DNA of 64,000 bases from the IMG/VR virus record IMGVR_UViG_2657245709_000001, positions 1 to 64,000 of that record; one strand, 5' to 3'. The position numbers and the translations under genes are program-made. Below the pieces are notes generated by a model. That model made no database searches. It had not been told where the DNA came from and was given only the letters and a program-made list of their open reading frames with translations. This stretch comes from a virus. Lineage: Duplodnaviria > Caudoviricetes. Each line of letters opens with the position of its first letter. Positions within the stretch are counted from its first letter, which is position 1. Positions 21,803-62,843 of the stretch are shown here, piece after piece.

Positions 21803-21830
21803 GAGGAACTCCGGGTGAGGGTGGGGAGCA

Positions 21831-21867: not shown

Positions 21868-21879
21868 ACGCGGGGCTGG

Positions 21880-23598
21880 TCAGGCCCGCTTGATGCCGGT
21901 GATCGCGCCGTTCCAGGCGGGGGCGTAGCAGACGAGGGTGCCCATCCAGTACGAGCTGGACTCGAAGGCGAACTGGGTGACGGGCCAGTCGACGCCCATC
22001 ATGTCCTGGACGTTGTAGACCGCCCAGACGTCGCTGACCTCGGAGTCCGGGAGCGGGAGGGTGTCGGAGATGATCGGGGCGTTGCCCTGCGGGAGCCAGG
22101 GGTGGACTTCGACGTTGACGCCCTTGCCGGTGACCTCGTTGATGATCGTGTTGACGACGTCGCCGAGGGTGACCCCGGTGAGCTGGTCCTGGGTGATCGT
22201 CATCCGGTAGTTGCTGGACGTCGACGTCTTCAGCGAGTCGCTGAGCTGCTTGCGGTCGGAGCCGTTGAGCAGCGTGCGGTCGGGGTCGGCCTTCACGTTG
22301 TCGTACAGGGCCGCGAAGGCGTCCTGCCACTCCGAGCCCGGGTTCGATGTCGACAGGGCCGCGTTCAGACGCTTGACGTAGCCGGAGTCCGCGCCGGTGC
22401 AGATCGGCAGGATGCCGTCGTAGCCCGCGGTGTACGCCGTGGTGTCCCCGGTGACTGCCGAGGCCGCCGTGCCGGACGTCGGGAGTGCCCCCTGGAGGGT
22501 GAAGGTGTTCGTCCCCGTCCGGCCGGCGTACCAGCGGGCGGAGTCGCCGGGGTCCGAGGAGCCGGTGGACACGTACACCCGCATGCCGGTGGCGCCGGCG
22601 GGGAGGGTGACGGTGACGTCGACGACCTGGCTCGAGGGGGCGACGGTCGCCGCGCTGGAGAGCACGGACTGTCCGAAGTCGCCGGCGTCGGCGGTGACCT
22701 TGACGTAGATGTTCGTGCTGACGCCGGACAGCGCGGTCTCGCCGGTCGCCGCCGAGCGGGCGGTCAGGGTCACGTTCGAGGGCGCGGCCAGGGCCCCGAG
22801 GAAGCCTCGCCCGCTGGTGCCGCGGCCCAGGAGCAGCATCCGCTCCTCCAGCAGCATGCTCGAGTAGAGCAGGCTGGTGCGGGAGAGCTGCCGGATGTCC
22901 TGGTAGCCCTGGCCTGCGTACTGCGCGGACCAGGTGACCGCGTCCGACACGGAGAACTGGCTGTAGGGGACGGTCTTGTCGTAGCCCGCGTACGTGATCT
23001 TCGGGCCGCGCGCGTAGTACAGCGAGTTCGCCGCCCCGGACGGGGCGAAGTTCGTCTGCGTCGTGTCCTGGATACCGGGGTGGATGTTGGCGACGCCGCC
23101 GGTCGCCGTACCCGTGAACCCGGAGATGACCTTGAACTGGTGGGCCAGGCCGATGCCCTTGCGGCGCGGCAGCCGGTTGCGGATCGGGGTCGGCCGCGGT
23201 GTGAGCATCTTCGCCGGGGCCTCGAGGTCGTACGCGACCAGGCCGCTGGAGAGCGGGGACGTGGTGGTGATGTCCTTCATCAGGTCCGGCTGGTCCGCCT
23301 TCAGGGCGTCCAGGGCGGACGTGACGGACGCCAGGGCGTCCGGGGAGAGAGCCTTGGCCATCTCCGGCGAGATGGCCTTCGACAGGGCGTCGAAGGCCGT
23401 CGCCGGGCCGCTGGTGTCGAAGGAGATGCCGCGGCCTTCACCGAACGACTGGGCGATGACTGCCTGGTCCACCACGCGGGTGGGCGCCTGGTCGAGAGCC
23501 GACATCAGCTCGTCGAACCGGCGGGAAACTTCGGCCTTGGTCAGTGCCGGCGCCTCCGGGGAGTCCCCGAACAGCACCTGCGCCTTGGGCAGAGCCAT
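21880..23598 (-). CDS. Major capsid protein with an inserted Ig/FN3-like domain (572 aa)
   Basis: Follows the protease/scaffold gene. AYDLEAPAKML...PIRNRLPR N-terminal region, VHPWLPQG and APAWNGAITGI C-terminus, strong codon bias. Confidence 0.85.
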   Translation of the reverse strand: MALPKAQVLFGDSPEAPALTKAEVSRRFDELMSALDQAPTRVVDQAVIAQSFGEGRGISFDTSGPATAFDALSKAISPEMAKALSPDALASVTSALDALKADQPDLMKDITTTSPLSSGLVAYDLEAPAKMLTPRPTPIRNRLPRRKGIGLAHQFKVISGFTGTATGGVANIHPGIQDTTQTNFAPSGAANSLYYARGPKITYAGYDKTVPYSQFSVSDAVTWSAQYAGQGYQDIRQLSRTSLLYSSMLLEERMLLLGRGTSGRGFLGALAAPSNVTLTARSAATGETALSGVSTNIYVKVTADAGDFGQSVLSSAATVAPSSQVVDVTVTLPAGATGMRVYVSTGSSDPGDSARWYAGRTGTNTFTLQGALPTSGTAASAVTGDTTAYTAGYDGILPICTGADSGYVKRLNAALSTSNPGSEWQDAFAALYDNVKADPDRTLLNGSDRKQLSDSLKTSTSSNYRMTITQDQLTGVTLGDVVNTIINEVTGKGVNVEVHPWLPQGNAPIISDTLPLPDSEVSDVWAVYNVQDMMGVDWPVTQFAFESSSYWMGTLVCYAPAWNGAITGIKRA

Positions 23599-23668
23599 AG
23601 CCCTGCTCCTTCCATGGGAAAGGCCCCACGCTGGGGGCCGGTTGAACGTGAGGGGGGTGCCGCAGGGG

Positions 23669-25417
23669 TCAGGCGTCGGCCTTGACGAGCAGCTCGCGGC
23701 GGCGCTCGAGGTAGCCCTCGCGCAGATCGCGGTCCTGGCACGCGTCTGCCTTGGCGAGGAGCGCGGCGGCGTCGGCGCGCATCTGGTCGGAGTCCGACTT
23801 GCGGGCCGCGGACGTCTCGGCCGCGGTCCGGGTCAGGGCCGGACCGCCGGGGACCGGCTGCGCCTGGAGCGCCTCGATCGTCTGCGTCGCCTTCGTCAGC
23901 TCGCCCGTGAGCGCCTGGATGCGCTCCTCCTGGGCGGTGCCGGCCTCTGCGAGCGCGGACGTCACGAGCTCGGCCACGTCGGCCTTCGTGAGGGGTGCCT
24001 CTGCCGTCGCAGACGCGGTCTTCTCCGGGGAGGCGCCGGCCTCGGGGGCCTCTTCCTTCTTCCCGGTGTCGGGCGCGTCGGCCTTGGCGGTGTCGGCCAG
24101 GGCCATCTGGTCGGCAGCGTCCTGCTCCCGCTTGAACCACTTCAGGGAGCGGACGGCATCGAGGAGGAGGCCGATGCTGATGGCCTTGCGGAGGTCGCCA
24201 CCGGCGAGGCACTCGGCCTCGGCGATGATCAGCTTGGCGATGCAGGCGACGGCGGCGTCCGCCCCGTTGATCTCCGCCTCGCCCTCCTCCTCACCGTCAT
24301 CGCCGTCGGCCTTGGTGAGCGCCGGCACCAGCGCGCGAAGGTCCCGGAGGATGCTCTCCGCCTGCTCCACGACCGCCGGCTGCTCACCGGCAGCACCGGT
24401 CTCCGAGGTGTCGGCCTTCTCGCTCTCCTTGAGCGAGCCGTTGCCGTTCCAGTTCTCGGGCACCATGCCCTCCAATCCGAGGGCTCGCGCCCGCTTGATG
24501 ATGTGCTTACGGATGGCGTCGTGGTCCGAGCCGCTCCGGCCGACCGCCTTGATCGCCTTGCGCAGCTCAGCCTTGCTGCGGATCGGGTACGAGCCGTCAT
24601 CCATCGCCGCACCCGTCTGCGCCGCCCGGCGACGGGCGGCCGCGGAGAGGTCGGCCTTCCCCAGCTCGGACAGCCGCCGCTCGACCCGGGCGTCGACCAA
24701 GCCCTGCACCATCTCCTCGGTCACCGGCTGGCCCGCGACCTTGAGGAGGAAGGACGGCGCAGCGATCGCCACACCGGCCTCGTCGGCCTTGACGGTCTCG
24801 GTGGTCACCGAAGCACCGGCGGCGGCGAGGCTGTTGAGCGCGGCCTGCACCGGGGCGGGGAGCTGCGCGTACAGCTCGTCGGCGATCCCGAACGAGGCGG
24901 CGTCCGACTTCTCGACGACCGTCCCCTCCACGGCCTCCAGCTCGCCGGCGCCGTCCGCCTTCGCGATCTCGAAGAGCGTGGTCGGGTTGCAGGGCCGGTC
25001 GACGATCGAGACCTCGACGATGTCCCCGCCCACGACCTCGCCGCCCGGGGCGTCCGCCTTGCCCAGGCGGACCTTCGGCCCCTTGATCCCGACCGAGTAG
25101 CCCTTGAGGACCTTGTGCTTGACCTTCAGACAGGCAACGGGGTCGACGATGTGCGAGGCGAGCATGTGCCCGCTGTCACCGTCCCCTTTCACGAGGCCCA
25201 CTCCCACCCCGACGGCCCGCTTCGCGTCGTGCTGTTCGCGCACGTTCGCGCCCTCGGCGAACCACGCGGGCATGGCGGTGTCCAGCCACGCCGAGTTGAG
25301 GCGCTGCCGGTCCCGGTCCAGGTGGGAGGACGCGGCGGGCCCGTAGACCATGTACGTGCCGTCGTCCTGCTCCTCGGCCTTGGTGATCGGCGTCCACGCG
25401 TACGCAATGTCGTCCAC
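23669..25417 (-). CDS. Prohead protease-scaffold fusion (582 aa)
   Basis: HK97-type protease motifs DRDRQ, NVREQH, GYSVG and EVSIVDRPCNP, with an acidic coiled-coil C-terminus. Confidence 0.88.
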   Translation of the reverse strand: MDDIAYAWTPITKAEEQDDGTYMVYGPAASSHLDRDRQRLNSAWLDTAMPAWFAEGANVREQHDAKRAVGVGVGLVKGDGDSGHMLASHIVDPVACLKVKHKVLKGYSVGIKGPKVRLGKADAPGGEVVGGDIVEVSIVDRPCNPTTLFEIAKADGAGELEAVEGTVVEKSDAASFGIADELYAQLPAPVQAALNSLAAAGASVTTETVKADEAGVAIAAPSFLLKVAGQPVTEEMVQGLVDARVERRLSELGKADLSAAARRRAAQTGAAMDDGSYPIRSKAELRKAIKAVGRSGSDHDAIRKHIIKRARALGLEGMVPENWNGNGSLKESEKADTSETGAAGEQPAVVEQAESILRDLRALVPALTKADGDDGEEEGEAEINGADAAVACIAKLIIAEAECLAGGDLRKAISIGLLLDAVRSLKWFKREQDAADQMALADTAKADAPDTGKKEEAPEAGASPEKTASATAEAPLTKADVAELVTSALAEAGTAQEERIQALTGELTKATQTIEALQAQPVPGGPALTRTAAETSAARKSDSDQMRADAAALLAKADACQDRDLREGYLERRRELLVKADA

Positions 25418-25458
25418 CTGCTGCTCCTTTCAGTACCGCAGCGGACCGCGGAGGTTGG

Positions 25459-28161
25459 TCAGCCGAGGCCCTCCGGCATGAGGACGCAGCGGCAGGAGGG
25501 ATGCCCCGGCGGGATGCCGTGCCCGCTGGGGAACTGCTGGCTGAGCGGGATCGCGCCCGCCGCCTCGTTGTTCATGCACACCGGGCAGACCCGCTCGTCG
25601 ACCGCGGTGAACCACGACTTCTGCCGGACCCCGTTGGCCCGGTAGGTGTTGAGGCTCGCAGCGGACACGGCGCGCGCGATCTCGGTGACGGCGACGCGCT
25701 CGGCCCAGGCCGGGTCACGCAGCAGGTGCTGGATGGCCAGGGCCGTCGTGTCCGCGGAGTCGCCGCGGGCGAGGGCGTCGGAGAGCACCTTGGCGAGCCG
25801 GTTCATGCGGTTCGCGGCGACGCCCCGGATGACGATGCCGGACTCGTCCAGGAGCGCCTGCAGCCCGTTGAGGGGCCCGCCGGGGCGCAGGAGGCGGGCG
25901 GCGTCCGGGTCGCCGGGACTCCACTTCGACCAGTCGACGGTGCTGTGTCCGGCGAGGACGGCGAGGGCGGAGCGCTCGCCGATGACGTAGCCGTCGGTCT
26001 GGATCTCCCGGACGATCAGCAGGGCCCGGATCAGGCTGATGTTCTGTGCGGCCAGCCAGCCGACCGCGTCGTGCCAGGGCGTTCCCGGCATGCCCGCGCC
26101 GCCGCCTGCGGGCTGTACTCCGCCGAGGTCGGGCTCATCGGCCTTGGCGGTGATGCCGCGCTGGGCGATCCACCGCTCGGCGAGCGCCCGGGCGTCGAGG
26201 GCGCCGCCCATGGCCTTGATGATGCGCGGCTTCCAGTAGGCAGCGGCGCGCCGGTCCGCCGACCAGCCAGGCCAGTCCCGGACACGGTCAGTATCCGGGG
26301 AAGACGGTGCTTTTGGGACGGCACCACCACCGTCCACGGGCTCGGGCTCGGGCTCGGCGAAGAGGACGATCTCGCCGTTCACGTCGGGGGCGTCCGCCTT
26401 CGTGACCACGGTGAAGCGGAACGGCCGGCTCGGCGCGGGGTTGCGGCGGGCCCACCGGCGGAACGCCGCGAGCTCGACCTTGACGGCCTGCGCCCGCTCC
26501 GGGTCGGCAGCGCCCTCCTCGTCGATGTCGGCGTCGTCTTCGTCCGGCTCGTCGGCCTCCGGGGCTTCGTCGGTGCCCTTGGCCGGCCCGATGACTGCGC
26601 CCGGTGCCGCCTGGTCGGCCGCGCCCTCGAGGAAAACGACTCCGCGGGTGGTGACGAGGACCGGCTTGTCGGCCTCCGGGAAGTCGTACCGGGGCTTCCC
26701 CGCACGGTCGCGGGCCTCGTTCAGGGTGAGGCGGCCGGACTTGTAGCGGGCGTCGTCGACGGCGTCGGCGGCGGCCTCGTCCTCCTCCTCCAGGCCGAGG
26801 AACGCAAACTCGAGGTCGCGGTGCATCCGGAGGTGGAGGCGCAGGATGTCGGTGACGGTGTCCTGGAGCCAGCGGACGGTCGGCAGGGTGCCCTTGCGGC
26901 GCTGTACGGACGCCTGCCCTTCGTGCCAGCCCGTGCTGCCGAGGCCGCCCTGCTCCGTGAAGCCGAGCTCGGCGATGGTGGTGTCGAAGTGGGCCACCAT
27001 CAGCTTGATCAGGAACAGGTCGTACTCCGGCCGGTACCGCTCGGCGGCATCCGACTGCTGCCCCAGCTCCATGCCGGGCGGGAGGATCCGCAACCGGTGG
27101 CGCGCCCCGGTCGGCCCGTACGCGTCGTTGAGGAACGTCTCGTATTCCTTGAGCTGCGCCGGACTCCACCCCGAGGCGCCTGAGTTGGTGACGAGCGCGG
27201 ACGGGACGGTGCCGTCGGTGTACTCGGCCTTGATCCAGGAGCGGCGGCGCAGCCACACGTCCAGATCCTCGAGGCACTGCTCGACCGCGCTGTACCCGTA
27301 CGGGGTGTGGGCGCGGACGTTGCGGCGCCGGTAGACGAGGTGGTCGGAGCGGTAGCCGTTGAGGACGGCCCCGTCGGCGTCGGTGTCGGCGATGAACTCG
27401 CCGCGGGGAAAGCCCCACAGGAGCTGCTGGTAGGCGGGGTTCGGGGGCTGGGGACGTCCGCCGCGGTGGTCGCGCAGCGGCTTGATCGTGGAGCCGTCCA
27501 GCACCTCGAAGGCGTAGAGGTCGCCGCCGAAGGTGCGCCGCGGGTAGATCGCGATGGCGTCGAGGACGAAGTGCTCCTCGAGGAGCTTGGTGAGCCAGTC
27601 GGTGGTGGTCTCGCCCTGGCCCCGGTCGGGGCGCTCGAGGAAGTCCATGACCCGGGTGATCTCGGCGGAGTGCTGCTGGCGCAGGGCCTTGGCGACTTCG
27701 TGGTCCGGCTGCTCCGAGCCTTCCTGGGCGCGTTCGATGGCCTGCTCGGTGAGGCGCACCGTCCAGCCCAGGCTCGCGACTTCGTTCTTGCGGATCTCGA
27801 TGCAGCGGCGCGGCAGCCCGCCGGCGTCCGCAGCGTCTCGCAGCACCTTCCACGGCACCAGCCGGTCCGACATGCCCGGCAGGTTGGAGCTGACGGGGTA
27901 CTCGTTGAGGCGGGGCTCAGGACGGCCGCTGTCCGGGCGCGGCGGGTCAATCGCGGCCGGGTACAGCGGCACCCCGGGCCCGAACGCGACCGGCGGGTCG
28001 GTGCGCGGGAGCGGCGGGAAGACGCCGGTGGTCTGGCCGCCGAGCCGGTTGGCGGCCATGAGCGCGGCGACCTGCTCGGTGGAGAACGTCACCGCCGAGC
28101 TGCTGGCGGCCTTGTTGAGGTGTGCCGGCTGCCGGGAGCGTCCGCGCTGCTTCTTACCCAC
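25459..28161 (-). CDS. Portal protein fused to a Mu gpF-like head morphogenesis domain (about 900 aa)
   Basis: Portal motifs LDGSTIKP, YGYSAVE and TLNEAR. C-terminal TE...DERVCPVC...PPGHPSCRC. Start at GTG 28161 (or 28167). Confidence 0.9.
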   Translation of the reverse strand: MGKKQRGRSRQPAHLNKAASSSAVTFSTEQVAALMAANRLGGQTTGVFPPLPRTDPPVAFGPGVPLYPAAIDPPRPDSGRPEPRLNEYPVSSNLPGMSDRLVPWKVLRDAADAGGLPRRCIEIRKNEVASLGWTVRLTEQAIERAQEGSEQPDHEVAKALRQQHSAEITRVMDFLERPDRGQGETTTDWLTKLLEEHFVLDAIAIYPRRTFGGDLYAFEVLDGSTIKPLRDHRGGRPQPPNPAYQQLLWGFPRGEFIADTDADGAVLNGYRSDHLVYRRRNVRAHTPYGYSAVEQCLEDLDVWLRRRSWIKAEYTDGTVPSALVTNSGASGWSPAQLKEYETFLNDAYGPTGARHRLRILPPGMELGQQSDAAERYRPEYDLFLIKLMVAHFDTTIAELGFTEQGGLGSTGWHEGQASVQRRKGTLPTVRWLQDTVTDILRLHLRMHRDLEFAFLGLEEEDEAAADAVDDARYKSGRLTLNEARDRAGKPRYDFPEADKPVLVTTRGVVFLEGAADQAAPGAVIGPAKGTDEAPEADEPDEDDADIDEEGAADPERAQAVKVELAAFRRWARRNPAPSRPFRFTVVTKADAPDVNGEIVLFAEPEPEPVDGGGAVPKAPSSPDTDRVRDWPGWSADRRAAAYWKPRIIKAMGGALDARALAERWIAQRGITAKADEPDLGGVQPAGGGAGMPGTPWHDAVGWLAAQNISLIRALLIVREIQTDGYVIGERSALAVLAGHSTVDWSKWSPGDPDAARLLRPGGPLNGLQALLDESGIVIRGVAANRMNRLAKVLSDALARGDSADTTALAIQHLLRDPAWAERVAVTEIARAVSAASLNTYRANGVRQKSWFTAVDERVCPVCMNNEAAGAIPLSQQFPSGHGIPPGHPSCRCVLMPEGLG

Positions 28162-28194
28162 GAGCACCCCCTTCTGCGGTTGTCGGGACGGGGG

Positions 28195-28428
28195 TTACAG
28201 GCCGGCCGCGGTGTAGAGGCCGGTCGGGCACAAGGCTTCGTGCGTGATGCGCTCGAGGTCGGCCGCCGCGTGGGCGGCGGGTCCCTGGGCGAGCCACCGG
28301 CGTGTGCACAGCAGGTGGCCGGGGTGGGCGCGGCAGAGCAGGACCCGGATGAGGGCGTGGGCCCGGTGGCAGGGGCAGCGGGGTGCGAGGCCGGGCGGCG
28401 GGGGCCGCCAGGCGGGACGGACGCGCAT
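28195..28428 (-). CDS. Small Cys/His-rich protein (77 aa)
   Basis: GGAGG RBS; fills the gap between the terminase and portal genes. Confidence 0.5.
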   Translation of the reverse strand: MRVRPAWRPPPPGLAPRCPCHRAHALIRVLLCRAHPGHLLCTRRWLAQGPAAHAAADLERITHEALCPTGLYTAAGL

Positions 28429-28443
28429 CGGGGTTCCTCCGGG

Positions 28444-29919
28444 TCAGGCGGTGGCGTACTCGCGCAGCCACGCCATCTGCTGGTCGATGCCGCCGGGCGG
28501 CGTGTAGAAGGCCAAGTTCAGGGCGTCGGCGTCGTCCGGAGACCGGCCGAGCCTCTTCTTCGTGTCCTCCTTGGGCTCGACGACCGTGCGGCCGGCGCTG
28601 TCGAGCGTGTACTTCGGGGCGGTGAGCTGCGTGACGAGCTGCTCGCGGTCGCTCTCCTCGAGCTCGGAGAGGTCCCAGGACCGGTCCTCGGAGAGCTGCC
28701 GGGCGACGCGCCACCAGATCTCCGACCGCAGCCTCGGGAACCGGTCCGGCTCCTCCGACTTCACCGAGACGTTGACGGGGACGATGACGGCCTGGTGCTC
28801 GCCCTTGAGTGCCTTCTCCTGGAGGTTGCCGGCGATGCCCCACCCGATCCCGATGGAGTCGATCTTCACGGCGGTCGGCTTGACCTCCTGGATGATCGCC
28901 AGGATCCGCGCGGTCGCCTTGACCGGATCCTTCTCCCTAAACCCCCACCGGCGCCCGACCACCATGCCGCGCCGCTCGCGGACCACGGTCTCGTCACCGC
29001 CGGCACCCATGTCGATGCCGAGTTCGTGCGGGAGCTGCTGGTCGGCCGGGCGCTTCTCCTCGCGCTCGGCGTGGCAGGCGCGCAGGGCCGAGAGGCGCAC
29101 GACGCCGTCCTCGGCCTCGTTCGGGAACTCGCCCAAGACCTTGCTGATGTAGGTCGGGGAGGACTCGCCGAACTCGTCGCGCATGTCGTCGACGTACTCC
29201 TGGCTGACCAGGCTCGGCCGCAGCTCGTCCGGCACCGGCTCCCCGGTGAAGTTCGGGGTGTCGAACGTGCTGATGTGGATGGTGTGCCAGCGGGAGCCCG
29301 GCTGGCACACCCGCGCGAAGTGGGAGCCGGGGTCGTCCGGGTTCCCGATCGCGAGGATCCGGCAGTGCTCGCCCGTCGCGATCGACATAGCGGCGGTCCA
29401 GAACTGCTTGTTGATGCCGCACGCCTCGTCCAGGATCACCAGGACGTACTTGGCGTGGATGCCCTGGAAGGCGTGCGGGTTGTAGTCGGACGGCTTCCGG
29501 CCGAACGCGATCAGTTGCTTGTTGAGCTTCCAGTCGGTCTCGTTGACCCGGCCGATGAACTCCGTGCCGCGCGCTTCGGCCTTCACCCAGGCGGAGTTGA
29601 TCTCGGACCAGAGGATCGCCTTGACCTGGTCGCCCGTCGGCGCCGTGGTGACGACCCGGGCCTCGCCGGGCGGGTGCGTGTCGAGCCACCAGCACGTCAA
29701 CCGGGAAGCACTGAAGCTCTTGCCGCTGCCGTGGCAGGAGTGCACGGCGGTGAACCGGTTCGTTCTCACGGACTCGGCGATCTCGAGCTGTTTCGACCAC
29801 AGGTGCTCGCCCAGCTTGTCCTTCGCCCACAGGCCCGGCTGCGTGACGTAGGACTGGGCCTGCTGCTCCCGCTCGATTCCCTCATCCAGCCAGTCCGCGG
29901 CGAGAGCGAGAGCATCCAT
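28444..29919 (-). CDS. terL: Terminase large subunit (491 aa)
   Basis: Walker A CHGSGKS, Walker B VILDEA, coupling motif GNP, nuclease motifs GIDMG and SPDDADAL. Confidence 0.95.
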   Translation of the reverse strand: MDALALAADWLDEGIEREQQAQSYVTQPGLWAKDKLGEHLWSKQLEIAESVRTNRFTAVHSCHGSGKSFSASRLTCWWLDTHPPGEARVVTTAPTGDQVKAILWSEINSAWVKAEARGTEFIGRVNETDWKLNKQLIAFGRKPSDYNPHAFQGIHAKYVLVILDEACGINKQFWTAAMSIATGEHCRILAIGNPDDPGSHFARVCQPGSRWHTIHISTFDTPNFTGEPVPDELRPSLVSQEYVDDMRDEFGESSPTYISKVLGEFPNEAEDGVVRLSALRACHAEREEKRPADQQLPHELGIDMGAGGDETVVRERRGMVVGRRWGFREKDPVKATARILAIIQEVKPTAVKIDSIGIGWGIAGNLQEKALKGEHQAVIVPVNVSVKSEEPDRFPRLRSEIWWRVARQLSEDRSWDLSELEESDREQLVTQLTAPKYTLDSAGRTVVEPKEDTKKRLGRSPDDADALNLAFYTPPGGIDQQMAWLREYATA

Positions 29920-46403: not shown

Positions 46404-48431
46404 TCAGACCAGCGCGGCGATCTTGGGCAGGGTGTAGCCGCGCGCGATGAGGTCAGCGGCTTCGCGGCGGCGGTCGCTCGCGGTGGACACGGACACGGAG
46501 AGGGCCTCGGCGATCTCGGCGAGTTCGACCGCGTCCGGGAGACCGCCGGCGGTGAGGATCATCCGGGCGACGCGGCGGGTGTCCCGCTCCCGCGGGGTGA
46601 GCCGGGCGGCGTCTTCCGCTTCGACGGCGCGGAGTTCCGTTTCGGCGGCGCGGCGCCGCGCTTCGACCGCGTCGAGACGCTCCGTCTCGGCAGCGCGCCG
46701 GGCTTCAGCGGCGCGCCGCTCAGACACTGCGGCATCCTCGTTGATCTTGGCGGCGCGCAGCCGTTCTTCAGCGGTCCGCGCCTCCGTTCCGACCGCGCGC
46801 CGGTCCGTTTCGGCAGCAGCGGCACGCGCTTCGGCCGCGCACCGTTCCGCGTCGGCGGCGGCCGTCAGACGGCGGCTCCGCTCCTCGGCGGCCTCCACCG
46901 CGGCCTGCTGCGCGGCGGTGACGTCCTGCTCCGTTTCGAGCGCGCGTCGGCGCGTTTCGACAGCGGCCTTGTGGGCTTCGGCGGCGGCCTTCTCGTTCTG
47001 CGCGATCTCCTGCTCGCGGCGCGCGGTTTCGGCCAGGGCGGCGAGGGTCTCCGCGTCGCTGTCGGCGGCGGCGCGGCGGGCTGCCGCCGCTTCGGCCTCG
47101 AGCCGGTCGGCCTCGGCTGTCGCGGCGGCCGCCGCGGCACGGTCCTCGGCGGCCTGCCGCGCGGCGGCGGCGGCGAGCGCCGACTCGGTGGCCTCCGCTT
47201 CCTGGATCGCGACCCGCTCCTCCGCCTCCGCGACCGCGGACGCCTTGGCGTACGCGGCGCGGGAAGCGACCGAAGCGACCGACTTCCGAGCCTCGGCCCG
47301 CTCCTCCGCTTCGGCGACCTCGGCCTGCTTGGCCAGGAGACGGATCCGGGCGTCGGCCGCGCGGATCTGGGCATCGACTGCCTCCTGCTCAGCGGTCTCC
47401 TGCTGCTGCGCCGTCTGGTCTGCCTCGGCCTGGCGGGCCTGCTCCGGGATCGCGAGCGCCTCGGCGACCGTGAGCCCGTAGCGCGCCATCGTGATCGGCA
47501 GCAGCGCCTCCTTCGGCGCGGACTTCCAGCCGCGCGGGTACCGCTCCCCCTTGGGGTAGAGGCGGTCCAGCTCCGCTCGGTAGATGAGCTGGTCACAGCG
47601 CCTGTCTACCGCTTCCTGGTAGGAGCTGATGCGCAGCAGGACCATGTCCCGGAACAGCAGGTAGGCGCCGAGCGGGTTCAGGAGCCAGCGCTCGCGCGGG
47701 ATGCTTTCCCGCGCCTCCTCACCGGCCTCGATGGCCTCGAGGCGGGTCACCTGCACGATGACCTTCCGCGCGGCCTCGACGGCGATGACGAACATCACCG
47801 GGATCACCGCGTGCATGCCGACACCGACCGGGTCCGCGGTCAGCGACCGTCCGCCGGACGCCGCGTTGAAGATGATCGTCGCGGCGGTGAAGGCGTGGGC
47901 GGTGAGGCGTACGAGGGGCCAGCGGATCCGGCGGCGGGTGAGGACGAGGTCGAGGGCGTAGAGGACGACGATGCCGACGTCGACGCCGATCGGGAAGACA
48001 GCGGCGAAGTCGCCGAAGCCTCGTTTTTCGGCCATGCGGACGAGGGCCCGGTAGGAGCCGTAGAAGCCGATCCCGGCGAGCCCGAGGCCGCCGAGGAGTG
48101 CGAGGAGGTTGAGGCCGTGGTGGGCTGCCCTCGGAACAGATTCCTGCGCGCTCGGAACGCCCGGGCGCGCGCCCGGAACGGCAACCGGTGCGCTCGGAAC
48201 GGCCCGGGTACGCGTCTTCGCACTGCGGGTGCGGCGCTGCGCGAAGGGCAGCCACGGACGGCGCTGGACGTCTGCGCTCGGAACGCCCGGGCGCGCGCTC
48301 GGAATGGTGGGCGGTGCGCTCGGAACGCCCGGGCGCGCGGTCGGAATGGTGGGCGGTGCGCTCGGAACGGCGGCGGGTGTGCCCGGGGCGGGGCGGCGGC
48401 GCCGGGTCACGAAGCGCGGCAGGAGGGGCAT
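46404..48431 (-). CDS. DUF2637-type (plasmid spread, Spd-like) membrane protein with long coiled coil and terminal HTH (675 aa)
   Basis: ATG at 48431 with GGAAGG RBS. GFYGSY...FPIGVD...TIIFN...HAVIP 4-TM domain, Ala/Glu/Arg coiled coil, then LAEIAEALSVSVSTASDRR. Confidence 0.8.
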   Translation of the reverse strand: MPLLPRFVTRRRRPAPGTPAAVPSAPPTIPTARPGVPSAPPTIPSARPGVPSADVQRRPWLPFAQRRTRSAKTRTRAVPSAPVAVPGARPGVPSAQESVPRAAHHGLNLLALLGGLGLAGIGFYGSYRALVRMAEKRGFGDFAAVFPIGVDVGIVVLYALDLVLTRRRIRWPLVRLTAHAFTAATIIFNAASGGRSLTADPVGVGMHAVIPVMFVIAVEAARKVIVQVTRLEAIEAGEEARESIPRERWLLNPLGAYLLFRDMVLLRISSYQEAVDRRCDQLIYRAELDRLYPKGERYPRGWKSAPKEALLPITMARYGLTVAEALAIPEQARQAEADQTAQQQETAEQEAVDAQIRAADARIRLLAKQAEVAEAEERAEARKSVASVASRAAYAKASAVAEAEERVAIQEAEATESALAAAAARQAAEDRAAAAAATAEADRLEAEAAAARRAAADSDAETLAALAETARREQEIAQNEKAAAEAHKAAVETRRRALETEQDVTAAQQAAVEAAEERSRRLTAAADAERCAAEARAAAAETDRRAVGTEARTAEERLRAAKINEDAAVSERRAAEARRAAETERLDAVEARRRAAETELRAVEAEDAARLTPRERDTRRVARMILTAGGLPDAVELAEIAEALSVSVSTASDRRREAADLIARGYTLPKIAALV

Positions 48432-48495
48432 CAGCGGGGGCCTTCCAGGAGCGAACCGAGCGGCTTCGGGCGGGCAGACCGACGCCCTCGGAACG
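48130..48495. repeat. Ten copies of CTCGGAA(C/T)G-like motif in 21-bp phase
   Basis: Copies at 48130, 48151, 48172, 48193, 48277, 48298, 48319, 48340, 48361 and 48487. All offsets are multiples of 21. Confidence 0.85.
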
Positions 48496-48517
48496 GGGCG
48501 TCGGCCGGTGGGGCGGG

Positions 48518-48871
48518 TCAGTAGCGGTCGCCGACGTGGGTCCGGCGCCAACGGGAGCTGCTGACGCAGACCGTGGTGCCGGTGTCGAGCAGGAGCTGCC
48601 AGCACTCGGCGGTGCGGTGCGGTACACGGCGGGTTCCGGCGGGTACCTGGCGGCACGTGCGGACGGTTGTGGTCTTCCGCAGGCGGTGCTTGGTCTGGGT
48701 GGTGCACACGCTGCGGTTGCGGCGTTCGCTGGTCCACGTGGTGTGCGCCGCGGTGTGCGTCTTCTCGACGACCCGGCCGTGCGCCGGGCTGCTGGAGTGG
48801 CCCGGCGTGCAAGCGGTGAGCGCGACGGCGAGCACGACCGCGGCCGCCGCGCCCCGCGCGGCCCTGTTCAT
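48518..48871 (-). CDS. Basic lipoprotein (117 aa)
   Basis: ATG at 48871, ATGA-coupled. Lipobox LTAC; Arg/Thr-rich with four further Cys. Confidence 0.75.
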   Translation of the reverse strand: MNRAARGAAAAVVLAVALTACTPGHSSSPAHGRVVEKTHTAAHTTWTSERRNRSVCTTQTKHRLRKTTTVRTCRQVPAGTRRVPHRTAECWQLLLDTGTTVCVSSSRWRRTHVGDRY

Positions 48872-49242
48872 TCCTGCCCTCCGGAGGGCAGGAACTTGGT
48901 CGCGGTCGCATGGACCGTCAGCCCGTCGACGACGCTGCGGACATCGACGTAAAGCGAACTGGAGCTGAAGGGCGTCTCCGCGACGGGGGCGCCCCAGTGC
49001 TCCGCCCACTGCCGGACGTCCTCCGGGCTCTCACAGAGGATCTGGATCCAGCTCGAGTCGCCGGGCTTCTCTCGGCTCCCGAAGTGGACGTCGACCGAGG
49101 AGGGAAGGGGCAGATGAGTGGGGAGCGAGGGGATGAGGGCGCGCGCTCGCTGGCCGAAGCGGAACGCGGCAGCCTCGACCTGGTCGACGCCGTGCTGGAG
49201 CTGCGACTCGATTGCGGCCCATCCGGGTCCGGGGCTGGTCAC
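48868..49242 (-). CDS. Hypothetical protein (124 aa)
   Basis: GTGA/ATGA-coupled on both sides. Confidence 0.7.
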   Translation of the reverse strand: MTSPGPGWAAIESQLQHGVDQVEAAAFRFGQRARALIPSLPTHLPLPSSVDVHFGSREKPGDSSWIQILCESPEDVRQWAEHWGAPVAETPFSSSSLYVDVRSVVDGLTVHATATKFLPSGGQE

Positions 49243-49836: not shown

Positions 49837-51201
49837 TCAGCGTCGCCGGAGAGCGAGCTGGAGGGTCGTTTCGTTGTCGGCGTGGGGGTCCAGGAGCTTC
49901 GCGACGGGCGGCAGTTGCTGGGTTGCGTCAGGGGCCGGGCGCGGGGCGGGGAGGGTGGGGCCGGCGTGAGCGTTGCCGCGGGTGACCCATCCGCGGTCGC
50001 GGAGCTTGGCGACGGCCCAGTACTTCGCCGGGTAGATCACGGCGACCTTGACGATGAGCTCGACCGGGGTGGCCCACAGCCACGTGAGCAGCTTGGTGGT
50101 CCAGTGCATGTGCGGCCGGCGGATCATGTACTGGGCGGTCTCGGCGTACCGGATGGCGAGGTAAGAGCCGAAGGCGATGGCCACGTACTCGGGGGCGGTG
50201 TGGAAGAAGACGCCGGACGCGGTCATGGTGAGCAGGACCGGCAGCATGATCCACTGGGTGACGGCGAGGAGGGGGAAGAGGAGCTTCTTCCACTCCAGGT
50301 TGATCACCGCGAACGGCAGAGCCTGCCAGGACGACTTGCCCCAGCGGAGACGCTGTTTGAAGAGGCCGCCCAGACTGTCGGGCATCGCGGAGTGGACGAC
50401 GGCGTCGTTGACGACGACGACGTCTCCCCGCAGCAGCGCATACATGGTGAGGCGGCGGTCGTCGCCGTTGGTGCCGGAGGACACGTAGTCGGCCAAGTTG
50501 TCGAAGACCACGTGGGCCCGGTAGAGGGCCAGAGCGCCGGAGGTGGTCTCCACGGCACCCAGGACGGACCGGGACGAGCGGATCATCAGGCAGGACGTGC
50601 CGATGTTCAGGTCCGAGATCCGGGTGATCCAGTTGTCGGCGAAGTTCCGGGTCAGGATCAGGCCCGTCGCCGCCATGACGCGCCGCTTCGACATGGCGCG
50701 CATGAGGTGCTCGAGGGCGTCGTCCCCGGGCACGGAGTCGGAGTCGACGGTGAGGATGAAGTCCCAGTCCTGGCGGCGCAGCGTCTGCAGGACGCCGGCC
50801 TGCGCGCAGCGCTTACCGCCGTTGGGTTGCCGGTGCCAGCGGATCTTCGGGTGTGGAAACGGGCGGACCGGGGCCTTTGCGGAGCCGTCGTCCATGACGT
50901 GGATCTCGGTGACGGGGTAGGTCTGCCGCAGCAGCGCGTCGAGCGCGGCGCGCAGCAGCTCGGGTTCTTCCTCGAAGGCGGGGACGATCGCGACGACCCG
51001 CCCGGTCGCGATGCGGCGCCGCGACCAGTGCGAGTTGACCTCGAGGGAGGAGATGTAGAAGGTGATGAGCCCTGCGTCGAACAAGTACAGGGCGGTCAGG
51101 AAGTGCCGGTCGCTGTCGCCGATGGCGAGGTGGTAGGTGGCCGCCCAGGCGGCCACCCCCACCGCGCCAAAGACGCAGGCGGCGAGCCTGCTGTACCTCA
51201 T
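49837..51201 (-). CDS. Processive GT2 polysaccharide synthase, hyaluronan synthase (HasA)/NodC-like (454 aa)
   Basis: Two N-terminal and about 3-4 C-terminal TM helices. Motifs DDGS, GKRCAQ, LTVDSD, SGALALYR, GDDRRLT and QRLRWGKS. Confidence 0.92.
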   Translation of the reverse strand: MRYSRLAACVFGAVGVAAWAATYHLAIGDSDRHFLTALYLFDAGLITFYISSLEVNSHWSRRRIATGRVVAIVPAFEEEPELLRAALDALLRQTYPVTEIHVMDDGSAKAPVRPFPHPKIRWHRQPNGGKRCAQAGVLQTLRRQDWDFILTVDSDSVPGDDALEHLMRAMSKRRVMAATGLILTRNFADNWITRISDLNIGTSCLMIRSSRSVLGAVETTSGALALYRAHVVFDNLADYVSSGTNGDDRRLTMYALLRGDVVVVNDAVVHSAMPDSLGGLFKQRLRWGKSSWQALPFAVINLEWKKLLFPLLAVTQWIMLPVLLTMTASGVFFHTAPEYVAIAFGSYLAIRYAETAQYMIRRPHMHWTTKLLTWLWATPVELIVKVAVIYPAKYWAVAKLRDRGWVTRGNAHAGPTLPAPRPAPDATQQLPPVAKLLDPHADNETTLQLALRRR

Positions 51202-51359
51202 CAGCCCGCGTACCTCTTTCCGCGGTTCGCGGCGCGGTAGATCAACGCACCGCCCACGACGAGCGCGATGATCGCGGCAATGGTCCAGCTGAATGCCGCG
51301 GTGCCTCCGAAGAGCGCGACGGACGCGCCGGTCTTCGCGAGGGTTCCTCTCCCGTACAT
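51201..51359 (-). CDS. Unannotated 52-aa peptide resembling a bare LAXTG sortase sorting signal
   Basis: AGGAG RBS, ATG at 51359. Translates as MYGRGTLAKTGASVALFGGTAAFSWTIAAIIALVVGGALIYRAANRGKRYAG; the stop is coupled to the synthase ATG (TGATG). Confidence 0.85.
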   Translation of the reverse strand: MYGRGTLAKTGASVALFGGTAAFSWTIAAIIALVVGGALIYRAANRGKRYAG

Positions 51360-51386
51360 GACCTGTTTCTCCTGTGAGTTGGGCGG

Positions 51387-52637
51387 CTAGAGCCGCTCGA
51401 TGTGCGGGGCGACGGGCATGACGCCCCGCGTGTCCAGCACGTAGGCCGACCCGTCGGCGACGCGCTGGAGGTCGAACTCGTCGTGCGGTGTGAGCAGCAC
51501 GACGGCGTCGTAGTGGCTCAGGTCGTCCGGCACCCGCGAGCCGGTGATCCCCACGTAGTTGGGCATCGGGCTCGGGTCGATGACGGTGACGAGCGCTCCC
51601 TTCGCAGTGAGGCGCCTGATGACCTCGAGCGCCGGGGACTGGCGCATGTCGGCGGTGCCGGGCTTGTAGGCCGCGCCGAGCGCGAGGATCCGGGCTCCGA
51701 ACATGCCCAGGTGGTGGCGCTGGTTGATGCCGTCCTGAAGGCGCTGGACCACGTAGTCGGGCTGGACGCTGTTGATGTCCTGGGCGAGCTCGACGAGGCG
51801 GACGGCGTGGCCGTGGCGGGTGCGGGCGTGGTGGGTGAGGTAGACGGGATCAACCGGCAGGCAGTGCCCCCCGACGCCCGGCCCCGGCAGGAACTTGGCG
51901 AACCCGAACGGCTTGGTGCCCGCCAAGTCGAGGGTGCGCCAGACGTCGGCGCCCAGGACGTGCGCGAGCTGGGCGAGTTCGTTGACGAGGGCGATGTTGA
52001 CGTGCCGGAACGTGTTCTCGAAGACCTTCGCGAGCTCGGCTTCCTCGAGGGTCTCGGCGAGGACGGTGCATTGGGTGATCCCGGCGTAGAAACGCTCGGC
52101 CAGGTCGCGGCAGCCGCGGGTGAGTCCGGACACGATCTTCGGGGTGTTCCCGAACGTCCACGCCGGATTGCCGGGGTCGATCCGCTCGGGGCTGAAGCCG
52201 ACGTGGAAGTCCTCACCGGCGGTCCATCCGGTGGCCTTCTCCAGGATCGGGACGACGATGTCGCGGGTGGTGCCCGGGTACGTCGTGGACTCCAGCACGA
52301 CCAGCGCACCGGCCTGCAGGTGTGCGGCGAGGGTGCGGGTCGCGTTCTCGACGAAGGACAGATCGGGCTGGCCGTTGGCGAGGGGCGTGGGCACGGTGAT
52401 GACGGCGACGTCGTAGTCGGCGAGCTCTGCCGGGTGGCGGGTGGGCTCGTAGCGGCCGGTCAGCAGAGCTCCGGCCAGCGCCTGGTCGTCGACGTCGTCG
52501 ACGTACGACTTGCCGTTCATGAGGTGGAGCAGTCGCTCCTCGGCGGGTTCGAACCCGATGACGGTGTGGCCGGCGGTGACGGCGGCCATGGCGAGGGGCA
52601 GGCCGACGTAGCCCTGCCCCATCACGGCGATCTTCAC
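51387..52637 (-). CDS. Nucleotide-sugar 6-dehydrogenase, UDP-N-acetylhexosamine (WbpA/WecC/TviB) type (416 aa)
   Basis: GQGYVG, TVPTP, ESTTYPGTT, SPERIDPG, KVFENTFR, GPGVGGHCLPVDP and AYKPG. Confidence 0.95.
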   Translation of the reverse strand: MKIAVMGQGYVGLPLAMAAVTAGHTVIGFEPAEERLLHLMNGKSYVDDVDDQALAGALLTGRYEPTRHPAELADYDVAVITVPTPLANGQPDLSFVENATRTLAAHLQAGALVVLESTTYPGTTRDIVVPILEKATGWTAGEDFHVGFSPERIDPGNPAWTFGNTPKIVSGLTRGCRDLAERFYAGITQCTVLAETLEEAELAKVFENTFRHVNIALVNELAQLAHVLGADVWRTLDLAGTKPFGFAKFLPGPGVGGHCLPVDPVYLTHHARTRHGHAVRLVELAQDINSVQPDYVVQRLQDGINQRHHLGMFGARILALGAAYKPGTADMRQSPALEVIRRLTAKGALVTVIDPSPMPNYVGITGSRVPDDLSHYDAVVLLTPHDEFDLQRVADGSAYVLDTRGVMPVAPHIERL

Positions 52638-60984: not shown

Positions 60985-61170
60985 TCAGGTGCGGGAGTGG
61001 TCTGGTCGAGGACGCGGCAGGGTCTGGGGCATCCTGCGGCGGGCGGCGCGGGCGGCGCGGGCGGCGAAGAAGAGAGCGAGAGCGCCCGCGGTGACGAGCA
61101 GCGCGATGGCGACGGTTGCGAGGGCGGCCCAGCCGATGAGCGCGCCGACGAAGATGAATAGGCCGTTCAC
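60985..61170 (-). CDS. Small membrane protein (61 aa)
   Basis: GTGA-coupled. Long hydrophobic stretch with a basic tail. Confidence 0.65.
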   Translation of the reverse strand: MNGLFIFVGALIGWAALATVAIALLVTAGALALFFAARAARAARRRMPQTLPRPRPDHSRT

Positions 61171-62843
61171 TCGACGCTGCCGGATTCGTCGGTGATGCCC
61201 GGGCCGTTGTGGTCAAGCAGCTCGGGCCCGAGCCGGGCCGGATCGGCAGGCCTGGCGAGCAGGCGCTGCAGTCGGCCGACAACCGCGCGGGCCTCTTCGG
61301 GGCTGGCCACGAGGACGCGCACTTCGTCGACCAGGTCGACGGCGAGGTCACGCTCTCGGCGAAGCCGGGCCTGTTCAGCGTCCGCGACCTTGAGCACGGC
61401 GTCAGCGCACTGCACGTAGAGGTGTTGCTCCGGGTCACGGTCCCACCTCGAGACCGCTGTGGCGTACAACTCGCGGCGGGCAAAGGCGTCCGGTGTCCTG
61501 GGCTCTGGCTGTTCCGCCTCGGCGGCCAGGCTGTGCAGCATGGCGGCGGGGTCGCCGGTGTGCTGGGCTACGGCGTTGGCTGCCTCGTGGAGCATCGCCG
61601 CCTTGTAGGTGGGCAGCAGGGCCAGCAGCGCGGCGGCGGCCAGGCCGACGTCGACGGTGATGGTGCGGCAGGCGTCGGCCGCGCTCACCCCCAGGGCGTG
61701 GACGGGGCACTCGGGGTGTGTGACTGTGCCTCCGCATTCGCACGACCTGGCTTCATACCTGCGCCGCGCCGCGCGGACGATCTCCTGCACAAGGTCGGGG
61801 TCCTGACCGGGCAGGCCACTGACGGAGACTGGTTCGTCGTCGACGACGGTTCGGCACAGGTCCGGGATCTCCACCTCGGGCTGGGTGTCGGGCGTCAGAG
61901 CGAAGCCCGCCTGGCGGACCCCAGCCGCGCGCGACACGGCGTCGGTGATGATGCGTCCGGCCTGCTCGGTCCAGGCGCTGACGCAGGAGAGGACCGCGTC
62001 GATACCGCCGACCTGGGCTTCACGGGTGTCGGCGTAGAGGTGGAGGCGGTCGAGGATCTCGCGGTAGATGTCGGCGCGGACCGCGACCGCGTACGGCCGC
62101 TCCGCGGCGGCGGCCAGCGCGCGGATCGCGGCGTCGGCGTCGGCGCCGTAGGCCACCCGGTCGTGCGGGTGGGCGTCGGCCCAGGTACGGCCGCGGTTCC
62201 AGTGGGCGTAGAGGGTGCCGGCGACGAGGTCCCGCAGTTCCGCGTGCGGGCGGACAACCTGCGTGCGGGCGGCGTCGTACAGGTCACGGACCCAGCGGGC
62301 GTCTCCGAGCGCGGTGTGCGCGACGTCGTCGGCGGGCGGTTCGACTCCGAGGGTGCGGGAGAGGGTGCGGGAGGACCAGGGCAGGGGGCCTGCGGCCTCG
62401 AGGCCGGTGCGGGCCGCGGCGAGCTGGACGATGTCGTAGGGGCGGTAGTGCCACTGGGCGCGGCCGGGGCCGAGGAGGCGGCGCAGGTGCCGGTCGTCGA
62501 ACCCGGGGTTGGAGCCGATGACCACGGTGCCGGACAGGAGGCTGGTGATGGCGGTGACCACCTCCGCGCGGGTCATGGCCACGAGGGCTTCGCTGCCGTC
62601 GCCGGTGTAGGCGGCCTCGGCGTGCGGGGGCACGGCGAAGCGCTCCAGGTAGCGGCCGATCTGAAGGGCCTCGCGGTCGGCGGTGGCGAGGCTGGGGCGG
62701 ATCTGCCACACGTACTCGGTGTCGGTGTGGTGGCCACCCTCGAACTCTCTGAGGATCACGGCGACCTCCCAGGCGACACCGATCTCGGCGTCGAGGTGGG
62801 TGGTCTCGCAGTCCACGAAAGCCAGCGGCATCATGCTCGGCAC
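61167..62843 (-). CDS. DEDDh 3'-5' exonuclease domain fused to a long mosaic C-terminus (about 555 aa)
   Basis: ExoI VDCETT, ExoII NPGFD, ExoIII HTALGD. The start may be ATG 62834 or 62831. Confidence 0.82.
   Translation of the reverse strand: MPSMMPLAFVDCETTHLDAEIGVAWEVAVILREFEGGHHTDTEYVWQIRPSLATADREALQIGRYLERFAVPPHAEAAYTGDGSEALVAMTRAEVVTAITSLLSGTVVIGSNPGFDDRHLRRLLGPGRAQWHYRPYDIVQLAAARTGLEAAGPLPWSSRTLSRTLGVEPPADDVAHTALGDARWVRDLYDAARTQVVRPHAELRDLVAGTLYAHWNRGRTWADAHPHDRVAYGADADAAIRALAAAAERPYAVAVRADIYREILDRLHLYADTREAQVGGIDAVLSCVSAWTEQAGRIITDAVSRAAGVRQAGFALTPDTQPEVEIPDLCRTVVDDEPVSVSGLPGQDPDLVQEIVRAARRRYEARSCECGGTVTHPECPVHALGVSAADACRTITVDVGLAAAALLALLPTYKAAMLHEAANAVAQHTGDPAAMLHSLAAEAEQPEPRTPDAFARRELYATAVSRWDRDPEQHLYVQCADAVLKVADAEQARLRRERDLAVDLVDEVRVLVASPEEARAVVGRLQRLLARPADPARLGPELLDHNGPGITDESGSVE

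Follow-up and report, generated by a model that had tools for sequence, protein, structure and literature searches.

A three-gene cassette in a Streptomyces prophage combines a HexNAc-type dehydrogenase, a sortase-signal micropeptide and a hyaluronan-synthase-like glycosyltransferase

Introduction

What would a tailed phage of Streptomyces make with a polysaccharide synthase of its own? The question is raised by a cassette of three genes in a stretch of 64,000 nucleotides of viral DNA (IMG/VR record IMGVR_UViG_2657245709_000001, positions 1 to 64,000; this whole stretch is hereafter the window), which encodes a nucleotide-sugar dehydrogenase, a membrane micropeptide and a family 2 glycosyltransferase (GT2) resembling hyaluronan synthases (HASs). 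Virus-encoded HASs or chitin synthases accompanied by precursor enzymes are known in chloroviruses, whose HAS gene lies near a precursor dehydrogenase gene, as in this cassette. An initial annotation had proposed that the cassette makes the host secrete an acidic polysaccharide containing N-acetylhexosaminuronic acid (HexNAcA), and that no characterised actinophage case was known. The latter agrees with our full-text literature searches, which turned up neither an account of a HAS-like synthase in an actinophage nor one of a glycosyltransferase partnered by an LAxTG micropeptide. From sequence comparison and a structural model, we lean towards a mobile exopolysaccharide module that would make and export an acidic HexNAcA polymer from a phage.

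Results

Three co-directional genes form the cassette

Most long open reading frames in DNA of about 70% GC are spurious, and genes were therefore called from the codon-position GC, using third-position GC (GC3) as the coding signature. GC3 reached 0.94 in both the dehydrogenase and the GT2 gene. The cassette runs co-directionally within an array of early genes, with gaps of 22-50 bp (Table 1). Each of its genes is preceded by a purine-rich stretch resembling a Shine-Dalgarno sequence, with AGGAGA upstream of the micropeptide ATG, and the TGA of the micropeptide overlaps the ATG of the GT2 gene by one base, A (ctgATGagg; TGATG). The early description of three co-oriented minus-strand genes, the last two translationally coupled, was thus borne out. 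The motifs first quoted were all read directly in the translations: GKRCAQ, LTVDSD, GDDRRLT and QRLRWGKS in the GT2, and SPERIDPG and GGHCLPVDP in the dehydrogenase.

The dehydrogenase is predicted to be of the UDP-N-acetylhexosamine type

All three Pfam UDPG_MGDP_dh domains were present in the dehydrogenase, which scored 381 bits against TIGR03026. The NCBIfam models ranked in the order archaeal UDP-N-acetylmannosamine (UDP-ManNAc) dehydrogenase (257 bits), TviB (207 bits, cut-off 592), WecC (200 bits), AglM (170 bits), TuaD (129 bits) and Ugd (33 bits), all of them under their cut-offs. Searches of the PDB gave 226 bits for entry 4r16, 171 for Cap5O and 54-130 for UDP-glucose dehydrogenases. 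Among annotated genes of the plasmid and phage collections, the TviB/VipA enzymes were 36-37% identical (205-214 bits), the WecC-type enzymes 29-32% (162-181 bits) and the UDP-glucose types 26-31% (112-125 bits). The closest host paralogue was 41% identical.

Phylogenetic analysis with IQ-TREE covered 28 sequences, with a HasB-like reference among them and the archaeal UDP-ManNAc dehydrogenases outside the set, and separated UDP-glucose from UDP-N-acetylhexosamine (UDP-HexNAc) enzymes with a support of 100/99. E. coli Ugd, RkpK, the HasB-like protein of the pXO1 has operon, a cyanophage UDP-glucose dehydrogenase (UGD) and three host paralogues made up the UDP-glucose side, and the cassette enzymes fell on the HexNAc side. 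There they grouped with TviB/VipA at 100/100, apart from WecC, a Ralstonia UDP-ManNAc dehydrogenase and a Cap5O-like enzyme, in a clade of their own with rhizobial and cyanophage enzymes. The use of SPERIDPG and GGHCLPVDP as class markers was also well founded, since 20 aligned sequences split cleanly. (N/S)PEFLREG and GG(S/Y/G)C.PKD occurred in all seven UDP-glucose-type sequences and in none of the cassette enzymes, and (S/C)PER..PG and GGHC..VDP in all five annotated HexNAc references. The form found in the cassette, FSPERIDPG, is closer to YSPERINPG of TviB than to CPERVLPG of WecC, and SPERI.PG and GGHC..VDP are shared with enzymes of the TviB/VipA/WbpA type.

The tree, the ranking of models and PDB entries, and the motif table agree with the first claim that the enzyme is, as predicted from these comparisons, of the UDP-HexNAc type and not of the HasB/Ugd/TuaD type. 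Given that no epimerase accompanies the cassette and that the tree places the enzyme with TviB, we modestly favour UDP-N-acetylglucosamine (UDP-GlcNAc) as the predicted substrate.

The glycosyltransferase resembles hyaluronan synthases in motifs, profile and predicted fold

The Pfam matches of the GT2 (Glyco_tranf_2_3, Glycos_transf_2, Glyco_trans_2_3 and, partially, Chitin_synth_2) placed it in the processive GT2 group. Its best NCBIfam model was NodC (TIGR04242) with 117 bits for a cut-off of 550, and the PgaC/IcaA poly-N-acetylglucosamine (PNAG) synthase model (TIGR03937) gave 68 bits for a cut-off of 422; the protein is a member of neither family. When the single sequence was compared with PDB sequences, the only processive synthase matched was the Chlorella-virus HAS (CvHAS), in which GDDRRLT is the same. 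A family profile built from 58 homologues raised HASs of Chlorella virus and Xenopus to 111-117 bits, with chondroitin synthase (glycosyltransferase domain only) at 66 bits, chitin synthases at 45 bits and cellulose synthases at 21-22 bits; the family search of plasmids recovered annotated HasA at 119 bits and NodC at 81-96 bits. In these 58 homologues the catalytic columns D104, D105, D153, D155, Q283 and R286 were invariant, and D247, D248, R249 and W287 were conserved in at least 90%.

A confident AlphaFold2 model (predicted local distance difference test, pLDDT, 87; predicted template modelling score, pTM, 0.85) showed a GT-A core surrounded by long helices, two of them N-terminal and four C-terminal. 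The best 13 Foldseek matches in the PDB were all HASs, with template modelling (TM) scores of 0.55-0.68, followed by cellulose and chitin synthases at about 0.5; sequence identity in the HAS alignments was 16-19%. In BFVD, only giant-virus or unnamed entries matched over the full length, the best named one being from Ectocarpus virus ESV-1-84, and tailed-phage proteins matched over the GT-A domain only. Class I HASs (CvHAS, Xenopus HAS1 and bacterial HasA) have the same motif set, D, DxD, GDDRxLT and Q(Q/R)xRW..KS, and likewise have membrane helices round the GT-A domain, two at the N-terminal side and several at the C-terminal side; CvHAS is, in addition, encoded by a virus. The match to class I HAS motifs drawn at the outset therefore stands in that motifs, profile and fold agree, but the motifs are common to the whole HAS/NodC/chitin-synthase superfamily.

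The GT2 tree comprised 48 sequences, namely two annotated NodC proteins, the HasA open frame of pXO1 as the one bacterial HasA reference, an IcaA-like protein, gp79 of phage Kromp and family members, with CvHAS, streptococcal HasA and vertebrate HASs outside the set. The tree resolved the window GT2, but not together with HasA. By motifs, profile score and modelled fold the protein is thus predicted to be HAS-like, and it is not a HasA orthologue. Its family is moderately large, with 113 clusters (50% identity) at E<=1e-30 and 906 at E<=1e-10. None of the host GT2 paralogues is close, the best being 27-28% identical, and on these values we rejected the possibility that the gene is a copy of a MatB-type PNAG synthase.

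A conserved LAxTG micropeptide precedes the synthase gene

The micropeptide had at first been treated as a bystander. It proved instead to be the most conserved partner of the GT2 family and to carry an LAxTG signal. Members of the micropeptide family are 50-57 residues long, and an alignment of 15 sequences revealed that M1, G11, G37, R42 and R46 are invariant and that Y2, A8 and W25 are conserved in at least 90%, the N-terminus reading M-Y-G/D. The signal occurs as LAKTG, LARTG, LASTG, LAQTG, LAATG or LPRTG, together with a hydrophobic stretch of about 25-30 residues that contains a near-invariant Trp, and then a tail of the form (Y/F)R...R..R. Identity was 69-79% in four close loci that were aligned (L005, L006, L007 and L009), and homologues in the same position could be recognised down to a GT2 identity of about 30%. 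Because sequence and position are both conserved, the micropeptide is a real gene and not a chance open reading frame. In 263 homologues we saw no natural fusion of the micropeptide to the GT2, the sole regular-expression match being internal and spurious.

An LAxTG motif, a hydrophobic segment and a basic C-terminal tail are the layout of a class E sortase sorting signal, which is present and conserved here; LAXTG is given as the class E motif in the relevant passage of PMC5148588. Only 5-22 residues precede the LAxTG, with neither a signal peptide nor a passenger domain, and the host has 10 genes with sortase domains. Since gene order is conserved and the genes overlap, we infer an association with the GT2, and the micropeptide is quite probably a dedicated membrane partner of the synthase. 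That a sortase reads its sorting signal is a tentative suggestion from the sequence layout.

The NCBIfam model NF058583 ('LAXTG motif-containing small protein') was considered as the family of the micropeptide and rejected as a look-alike. The window micropeptide scored 22 bits for a cut-off of 65 and, among eight micropeptides, four scored 18-28 bits and the other four, including Kromp gp78, gave no match. At its cut-off the model found no genome among 151 of the genus or 401 of the class, and its sub-threshold matches in the genus were mostly C-terminal signals of large LAXTG proteins. We also observed two free-standing mini-proteins of 50-60 aa with the layout MY...LAxTG, transmembrane segment, RR (L089, G502:C77; L090, G517:C1). 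Bare sortase-signal micropeptides may form a wider, unstudied class in Actinomycetes.

The triad is rare, mobile and conserved

Close copies of the GT2 (79-83% identity) were found in four Streptomyces genomes and on one 104-kb IMG/VR contig, and the order dehydrogenase-micropeptide-GT2 was kept in all five. No other window protein matched their flanks, apart from one weak partial match in L005. On the 104-kb contig the cassette lies near a phage DNA polymerase, a phosphatase and other PHROG families; two unrelated phage backgrounds carry it. Three strains hold the triad at one chromosomal site between genes for glutamine synthetase, an M55 peptidase and flavohaemoglobin, and a fourth holds it in a different host-type neighbourhood. 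It also resides on a linear plasmid of S. coeruleorubidus, whose 57-aa peptide is called 'hypothetical' by the Prokaryotic Genome Annotation Pipeline (PGAP). The assumption that the cassette is specific to phages had to be given up in view of the plasmid and the ordinary chromosomal sites. The opposite possibility, a common chromosomal operon with no phage association, is right about the existence of chromosomal copies but not about their frequency or context: a GT2 homologue (E<=1e-40) occurs in 15 of 401 Streptomyces species genomes, with that of the window included and one other being close, and the cassette recurs in phages.

We examined 18 loci, some of which come from closely related strains and are non-independent. 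The dehydrogenase was present in 13 of them, with the triad order kept and GT2 identities of 38-83%, and the micropeptide lay directly upstream of the GT2 gene in 15, down to a GT2 identity of 31%. Scanning IMG/VR with the family alignment yielded 31 GT2 loci, of which 19 had the micropeptide directly upstream. In the dehydrogenase tree, the phage-borne enzymes of the window and L005 paired together, and L006 and L009 combined a window-type GT2 (80-83%) with the dehydrogenase of the group whose GT2 is 44% identical (L029-L036). Here the dehydrogenase tree is in conflict with that of the GT2, which suggests that recombination has occurred within the cassette. Altogether, the triad is a rare, mobile and conserved module.

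The GT2-micropeptide pair is also found in an isolated actinophage, Streptomyces phage Kromp (MH744420). Its gp78 is a 56-aa peptide with LASTG, a transmembrane segment and a basic tail, and it overlaps the start of gp79, a GT2 31% identical to that of the window; the two are annotated just as 'hypothetical protein' and 'glycosyltransferase'. Unlike the cassette, Kromp has no dehydrogenase, its gp79 belongs to a sister clade with HasA and NodC, and Kromp-like peptides do not have the N-terminal Tyr.

Two further observations concern glycan genes in phage records. Aphanizomenon phage Yong-DA (ON073792.1, L050), a circular cyanophage of 42.6 kb, carries another phage-borne glycan cluster, with two nucleotide-sugar dehydrogenases (one 42% identical to the cassette enzyme, the other of the UDP-glucose type), a glycosyltransferase, a UDP-glucuronate decarboxylase and a polysaccharide export protein. 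Three records named 'Staphylococcus phage SA ... Kay' (OR844989.1, OR850398.1 and OR849864.1; L054, L055) contain icaA-like and cap5O-like genes; they are marked UNVERIFIED_ORG, one is 282 kb long, and they resemble bacterial chromosome rather than phage.

The cassette lies well inside a prophage insertion of about 76 kb

Nearly all window genes share the minus strand. The cassette has phage-family genes to either side (DUF2637/phrog_32569 on one, phrog_192 on the other), and an HNH-like protein is encoded further right (Table 1). We drew the borders from flank synteny by searching the contig flanks in 60 congeners. Synteny with relatives ended at window position -77 and started again at +75,995, and in two relatives (G041 and G017) the two flanks meet, overlapping by 14 bp, and form an empty site. 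These abutting flanks imply an insertion of about 76.1 kb, from about window -76 to +76,008. The 9-bp core TCCGTCCAC is present at both junctions, and its right-hand copy directly precedes the start of an adenylosuccinate-lyase (purB-like) gene. The region at 44-64 kb had no syntenic counterpart in any of 30 relatives. With an integrase, genes for packaging, head, tail and lysis, and borders that can be drawn, the element has the make-up of a temperate tailed phage; its initial reading as a prophage, for which the integrase, the late module, the phage genes on either side of the cassette and the empty site all speak, is upheld. The insertion may be a single phage or a phage together with adjacent cargo. 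The large terminase is 38-43% identical to actinophage terminases, and a megablast search with the region at 40-64 kb found no match among 50,697 phage records; both results point to an undescribed phage lineage.

An insertion before a purB-like gene, with a 9-bp core and no tRNA near, is an unusual attachment site for a phage with a tyrosine integrase. No tRNA was found in the window or within 30-40 kb on either side, and a 14-mer search for attachment repeats gave nothing convincing. Genome G012 was dropped as the carrier of a related prophage, because only part of one gene was common. Other products of the early region are an N6/N4 DNA methylase and two Phage_zn_bind_8 zinc-finger proteins, with an ECF-type (extracytoplasmic function) sigma factor encoded near the right end. 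The DUF2637 protein, three genes downstream of the cassette, has a very long, Ala/Glu/Arg-rich C-terminal half that is coiled-coil-like, and a partial homologue in Streptomyces phage VWB. Inside the prophage, about 2 kb upstream of the cassette, there is a gene for an APH/RIO-like kinase-fold protein. It is no orthologue of the APH-family gene that follows the GT2 gene on the S. coeruleorubidus plasmid, with which only the kinase motif is common, and it was rejected as a conserved partner.

Table 1. Positions of the cassette genes and of other features of the prophage (window coordinates unless a locus is named)
Feature	Position	Strand	Basis or remarks
Dehydrogenase, predicted UDP-HexNAc-type nucleotide-sugar 6-dehydrogenase	51387..52637	-	416 aa, GTG start
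Membrane micropeptide	51201..51359	-	52 aa, ATG start; MYG N-terminus, LAKTG, Trp-containing hydrophobic helix, basic tail
GT2, predicted membrane-embedded processive HAS-like synthase	49837..51201	-	454 aa, ATG start
Tyrosine integrase	1..1431	-	left prophage end; Pfam Phage_integrase and SAM-like N domain
Repressor-like regulator	3901-5103		PHROGs/Pfam
Phage late module, whole	7074..29919	-	PHROGs matches
Endolysin	7074-8687	-	PHROGs
phrog_5313 protein	9508-12921	-	PHROGs
Tape measure protein	12937-16896	-	1319 aa; PHROGs
phrog_13692 protein	21880-23598	-	PHROGs
Protease-like protein	23669-25417	-	PHROGs
Portal protein	25459-28167	-	PHROGs
Large terminase	28444-29919	-	PHROGs
Methylase, zinc-finger and ECF-type sigma set	40728-41513; 41646-42536; L014:4416-5429; L014:9487-10095	-	early region and right end
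DUF2637 protein	46404..48911	-	835 aa, downstream of cassette; Pfam DUF2637; phrog_32569, E 1e-108
APH/RIO-like kinase-fold protein	54623-55534	-	upstream of cassette
Phage exonuclease-like protein	61167..62843	-	upstream of cassette; phrog_192, E 4e-22
9-bp core at the junctions	-85..-77; 76000..76008		G000:C4; L013/L014

Discussion

The findings presented here suggest how the cassette could work as self-contained cargo in the early-gene region of a temperate Streptomyces siphophage of about 76 kb. The dehydrogenase would oxidise a host UDP-HexNAc, likeliest UDP-GlcNAc, at C6 to give UDP-HexNAcA. At a GT-A site facing the cytoplasm, the HAS-fold GT2 would then polymerise this donor, on its own or in alternation with UDP-GlcNAc, and would extrude the acidic chain via its own transmembrane channel. 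The micropeptide, made by coupled translation with the synthase, would be its single-pass membrane partner, oriented N-out/C-in by the basic tail; its LAxTG signal, if a sortase reads it, would probably be read by a host class E enzyme. The resulting polymer may coat the infected or lysogenic hypha and change how accessible the wall is, for instance by keeping other phages from adsorbing. Surface masking against further adsorption is the most economical guess. The anatomy of the genes, the assignments to family and fold, the conserved triad and its place in a phage are observed; the substrate, the polymer, the function of the micropeptide and the benefit to the phage, with it the receptor masking or hyphal contact first proposed, are what we infer.

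We also considered a bolder role for the micropeptide, as a minimal class E sortase substrate that would serve as a covalent handle for the glycan and be ligated to peptidoglycan. The synthase would build the HexNAcA polymer on, or transfer it to, the short N-terminal tail of the peptide, in which the dehydrogenase-linked micropeptides have a conserved Tyr at position 2-4. The tail would pass outward via the synthase channel, and the sortase would cut LAxTG and ligate the peptide-glycan to peptidoglycan. We regard this role as improbable; if true, it would be a phage-spread, three-gene system for the sortase wall-anchoring of a polysaccharide with no carrier lipid and no LytR-CpsA-Psr (LCP) ligase.

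Several results weigh against an acidic polymer made for the benefit of the phage. The function-specific NCBIfam models for the cassette proteins all scored under their cut-offs, and both the top dehydrogenase model and the top PDB entry (4r16) are archaeal UDP-ManNAc dehydrogenases. UDP-ManNAc as the substrate is, on these comparisons, unlikely yet the next candidate after UDP-GlcNAc, and the remaining share falls to other sugars. In the GT2 tree the window protein lies in a distinct actinobacterial clade, with HasA, NodC and Kromp gp79 across a branch supported by an SH-like approximate likelihood ratio test (SH-aLRT) value of 98; as the clade is outside both HasA and NodC, the donor specificity of neither can be transferred to it. 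Within 3 kb of the 31 IMG/VR GT2 loci, a dehydrogenase was found in six and in none of the other 25, and a large sister group of Kromp-type phage GT2s has the micropeptide and no dehydrogenase, so the synthase is evidently able to work on host sugars alone. The free-standing LAxTG mini-proteins of L089 and L090 have neither a GT2 nor a dehydrogenase within 1.5 kb, and chromosomal, non-phage sites hold the cassette as well. Finally, a simple scan for a promoter or terminator near the cassette found nothing over shuffle expectation, and the next gene is 22 bp away. Expression together with the early genes is therefore probable, and the cassette may be an early lytic gene set rather than a set of lysogenic-conversion genes. 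Expression of the chlorovirus HAS with early genes is comparable to this expectation.

It is rather unlikely, in our view, that the GT2 produces neutral GlcNAc chains, polymeric or oligomeric (chitin-like, PNAG-like or a chito-oligosaccharide), and that the dehydrogenase feeds another acceptor or modifies a minor fraction. Such a product would suit the Kromp-type phage clade, which has no dehydrogenase, and the 25 viral loci with none within 3 kb, the ranking of NodC and PgaC as the best NCBIfam models, and the fusion of some GT2 homologues of 42-46% identity to the polysaccharide deacetylase domain PF01522. It would not suit the dehydrogenase directly upstream in 13 of the 18 loci, nor the position of HAS, a uronic-acid-using synthase of a hetero-polymer, well over the chitin synthases in both profile and fold. 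The nearest solved fold being that of HAS could equally be taken to mean that the product is ordinary hyaluronan, made by a true HasA analogue with a divergent UDP-glucose dehydrogenase; automatic labels read this way, 'hyaluronan synthase' being given to many GT2 homologues by the Joint Genome Institute (JGI) pipeline and 'UDP-glucose dehydrogenase' to the dehydrogenase family by PHROGs. Here the dehydrogenase speaks the other way. The tree parts the cassette enzymes from all seven UDP-glucose-type sequences at 100/99, NPEFLREG and GG(S/Y/G)C.PKD are replaced in them, and Ugd-type models reached 33-170 bits against 200-257 for the HexNAc models. With the GT2 also outside the HasA clade, we hold hyaluronan to be very improbable.

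The genomic setting raises a different doubt, whether the cassette is a passive chromosomal or plasmid island that landed in a prophage and contributes nothing to the phage life cycle. The triad at a shared chromosomal site in three strains, in a host-type setting in a fourth strain, and on a linear plasmid would be expected of such an island. Its recurrence in two unrelated phage backgrounds would not, and neither would the GT2-micropeptide pair of the isolated phage Kromp, the 31 GT2 loci of IMG/VR or the co-directional embedding of the cassette, with its short gaps, in an array of early genes. On balance we judge passive cargo to be unlikely, and continue to favour a module that would make and export an acidic HexNAcA polymer from a phage.

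Compared with class I HASs, the cassette GT2 is paired with a HexNAc-type and not a UDP-glucose dehydrogenase, and it has an LAxTG micropeptide as a seemingly obligatory partner. Small membrane proteins encoded beside a processive GT2 and co-translated with it have a parallel in IcaD and PgaD, the small subunits of poly-GlcNAc synthases, which have two transmembrane helices and no sortase motif; no sequence relationship is expected. The nearest precedent by description, rather than by sequence, is the pair of a UDP-GlcNAc 6-dehydrogenase and a chitin-synthase-like GT2 predicted in fungi and phycodnaviruses, with its product unknown (Chen et al. 2014, PMC4059230). As the relevant part of that paper has it, a HexNAc 6-dehydrogenase stands beside a processive GT2, in viruses and moving horizontally, as here; the hosts are eukaryotes, the viruses giant, and that part reports no micropeptide.

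The cassette is thus a bacterial-virus counterpart of the HAS/chitin-synthase-like cassettes of algal viruses, with a predicted HexNAc-type dehydrogenase and a sortase-signal micropeptide. The viral HAS and chitin synthase cassettes described until now come from giant algal viruses, and the counterpart found here occurs in actinophages, plasmids and chromosomes. Together, a HAS-fold synthase and a HexNAc-type dehydrogenase predict a polymer with N-acetylhexosaminuronic acid; the characterised synthases of the same fold named here make other products (hyaluronan, chitin and cellulose). If the micropeptide links polymer synthesis to sortase, two wall-assembly systems with no interaction known before would be joined. 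Cassettes of this kind may offer access to new acidic polymers that resemble glycosaminoglycans.

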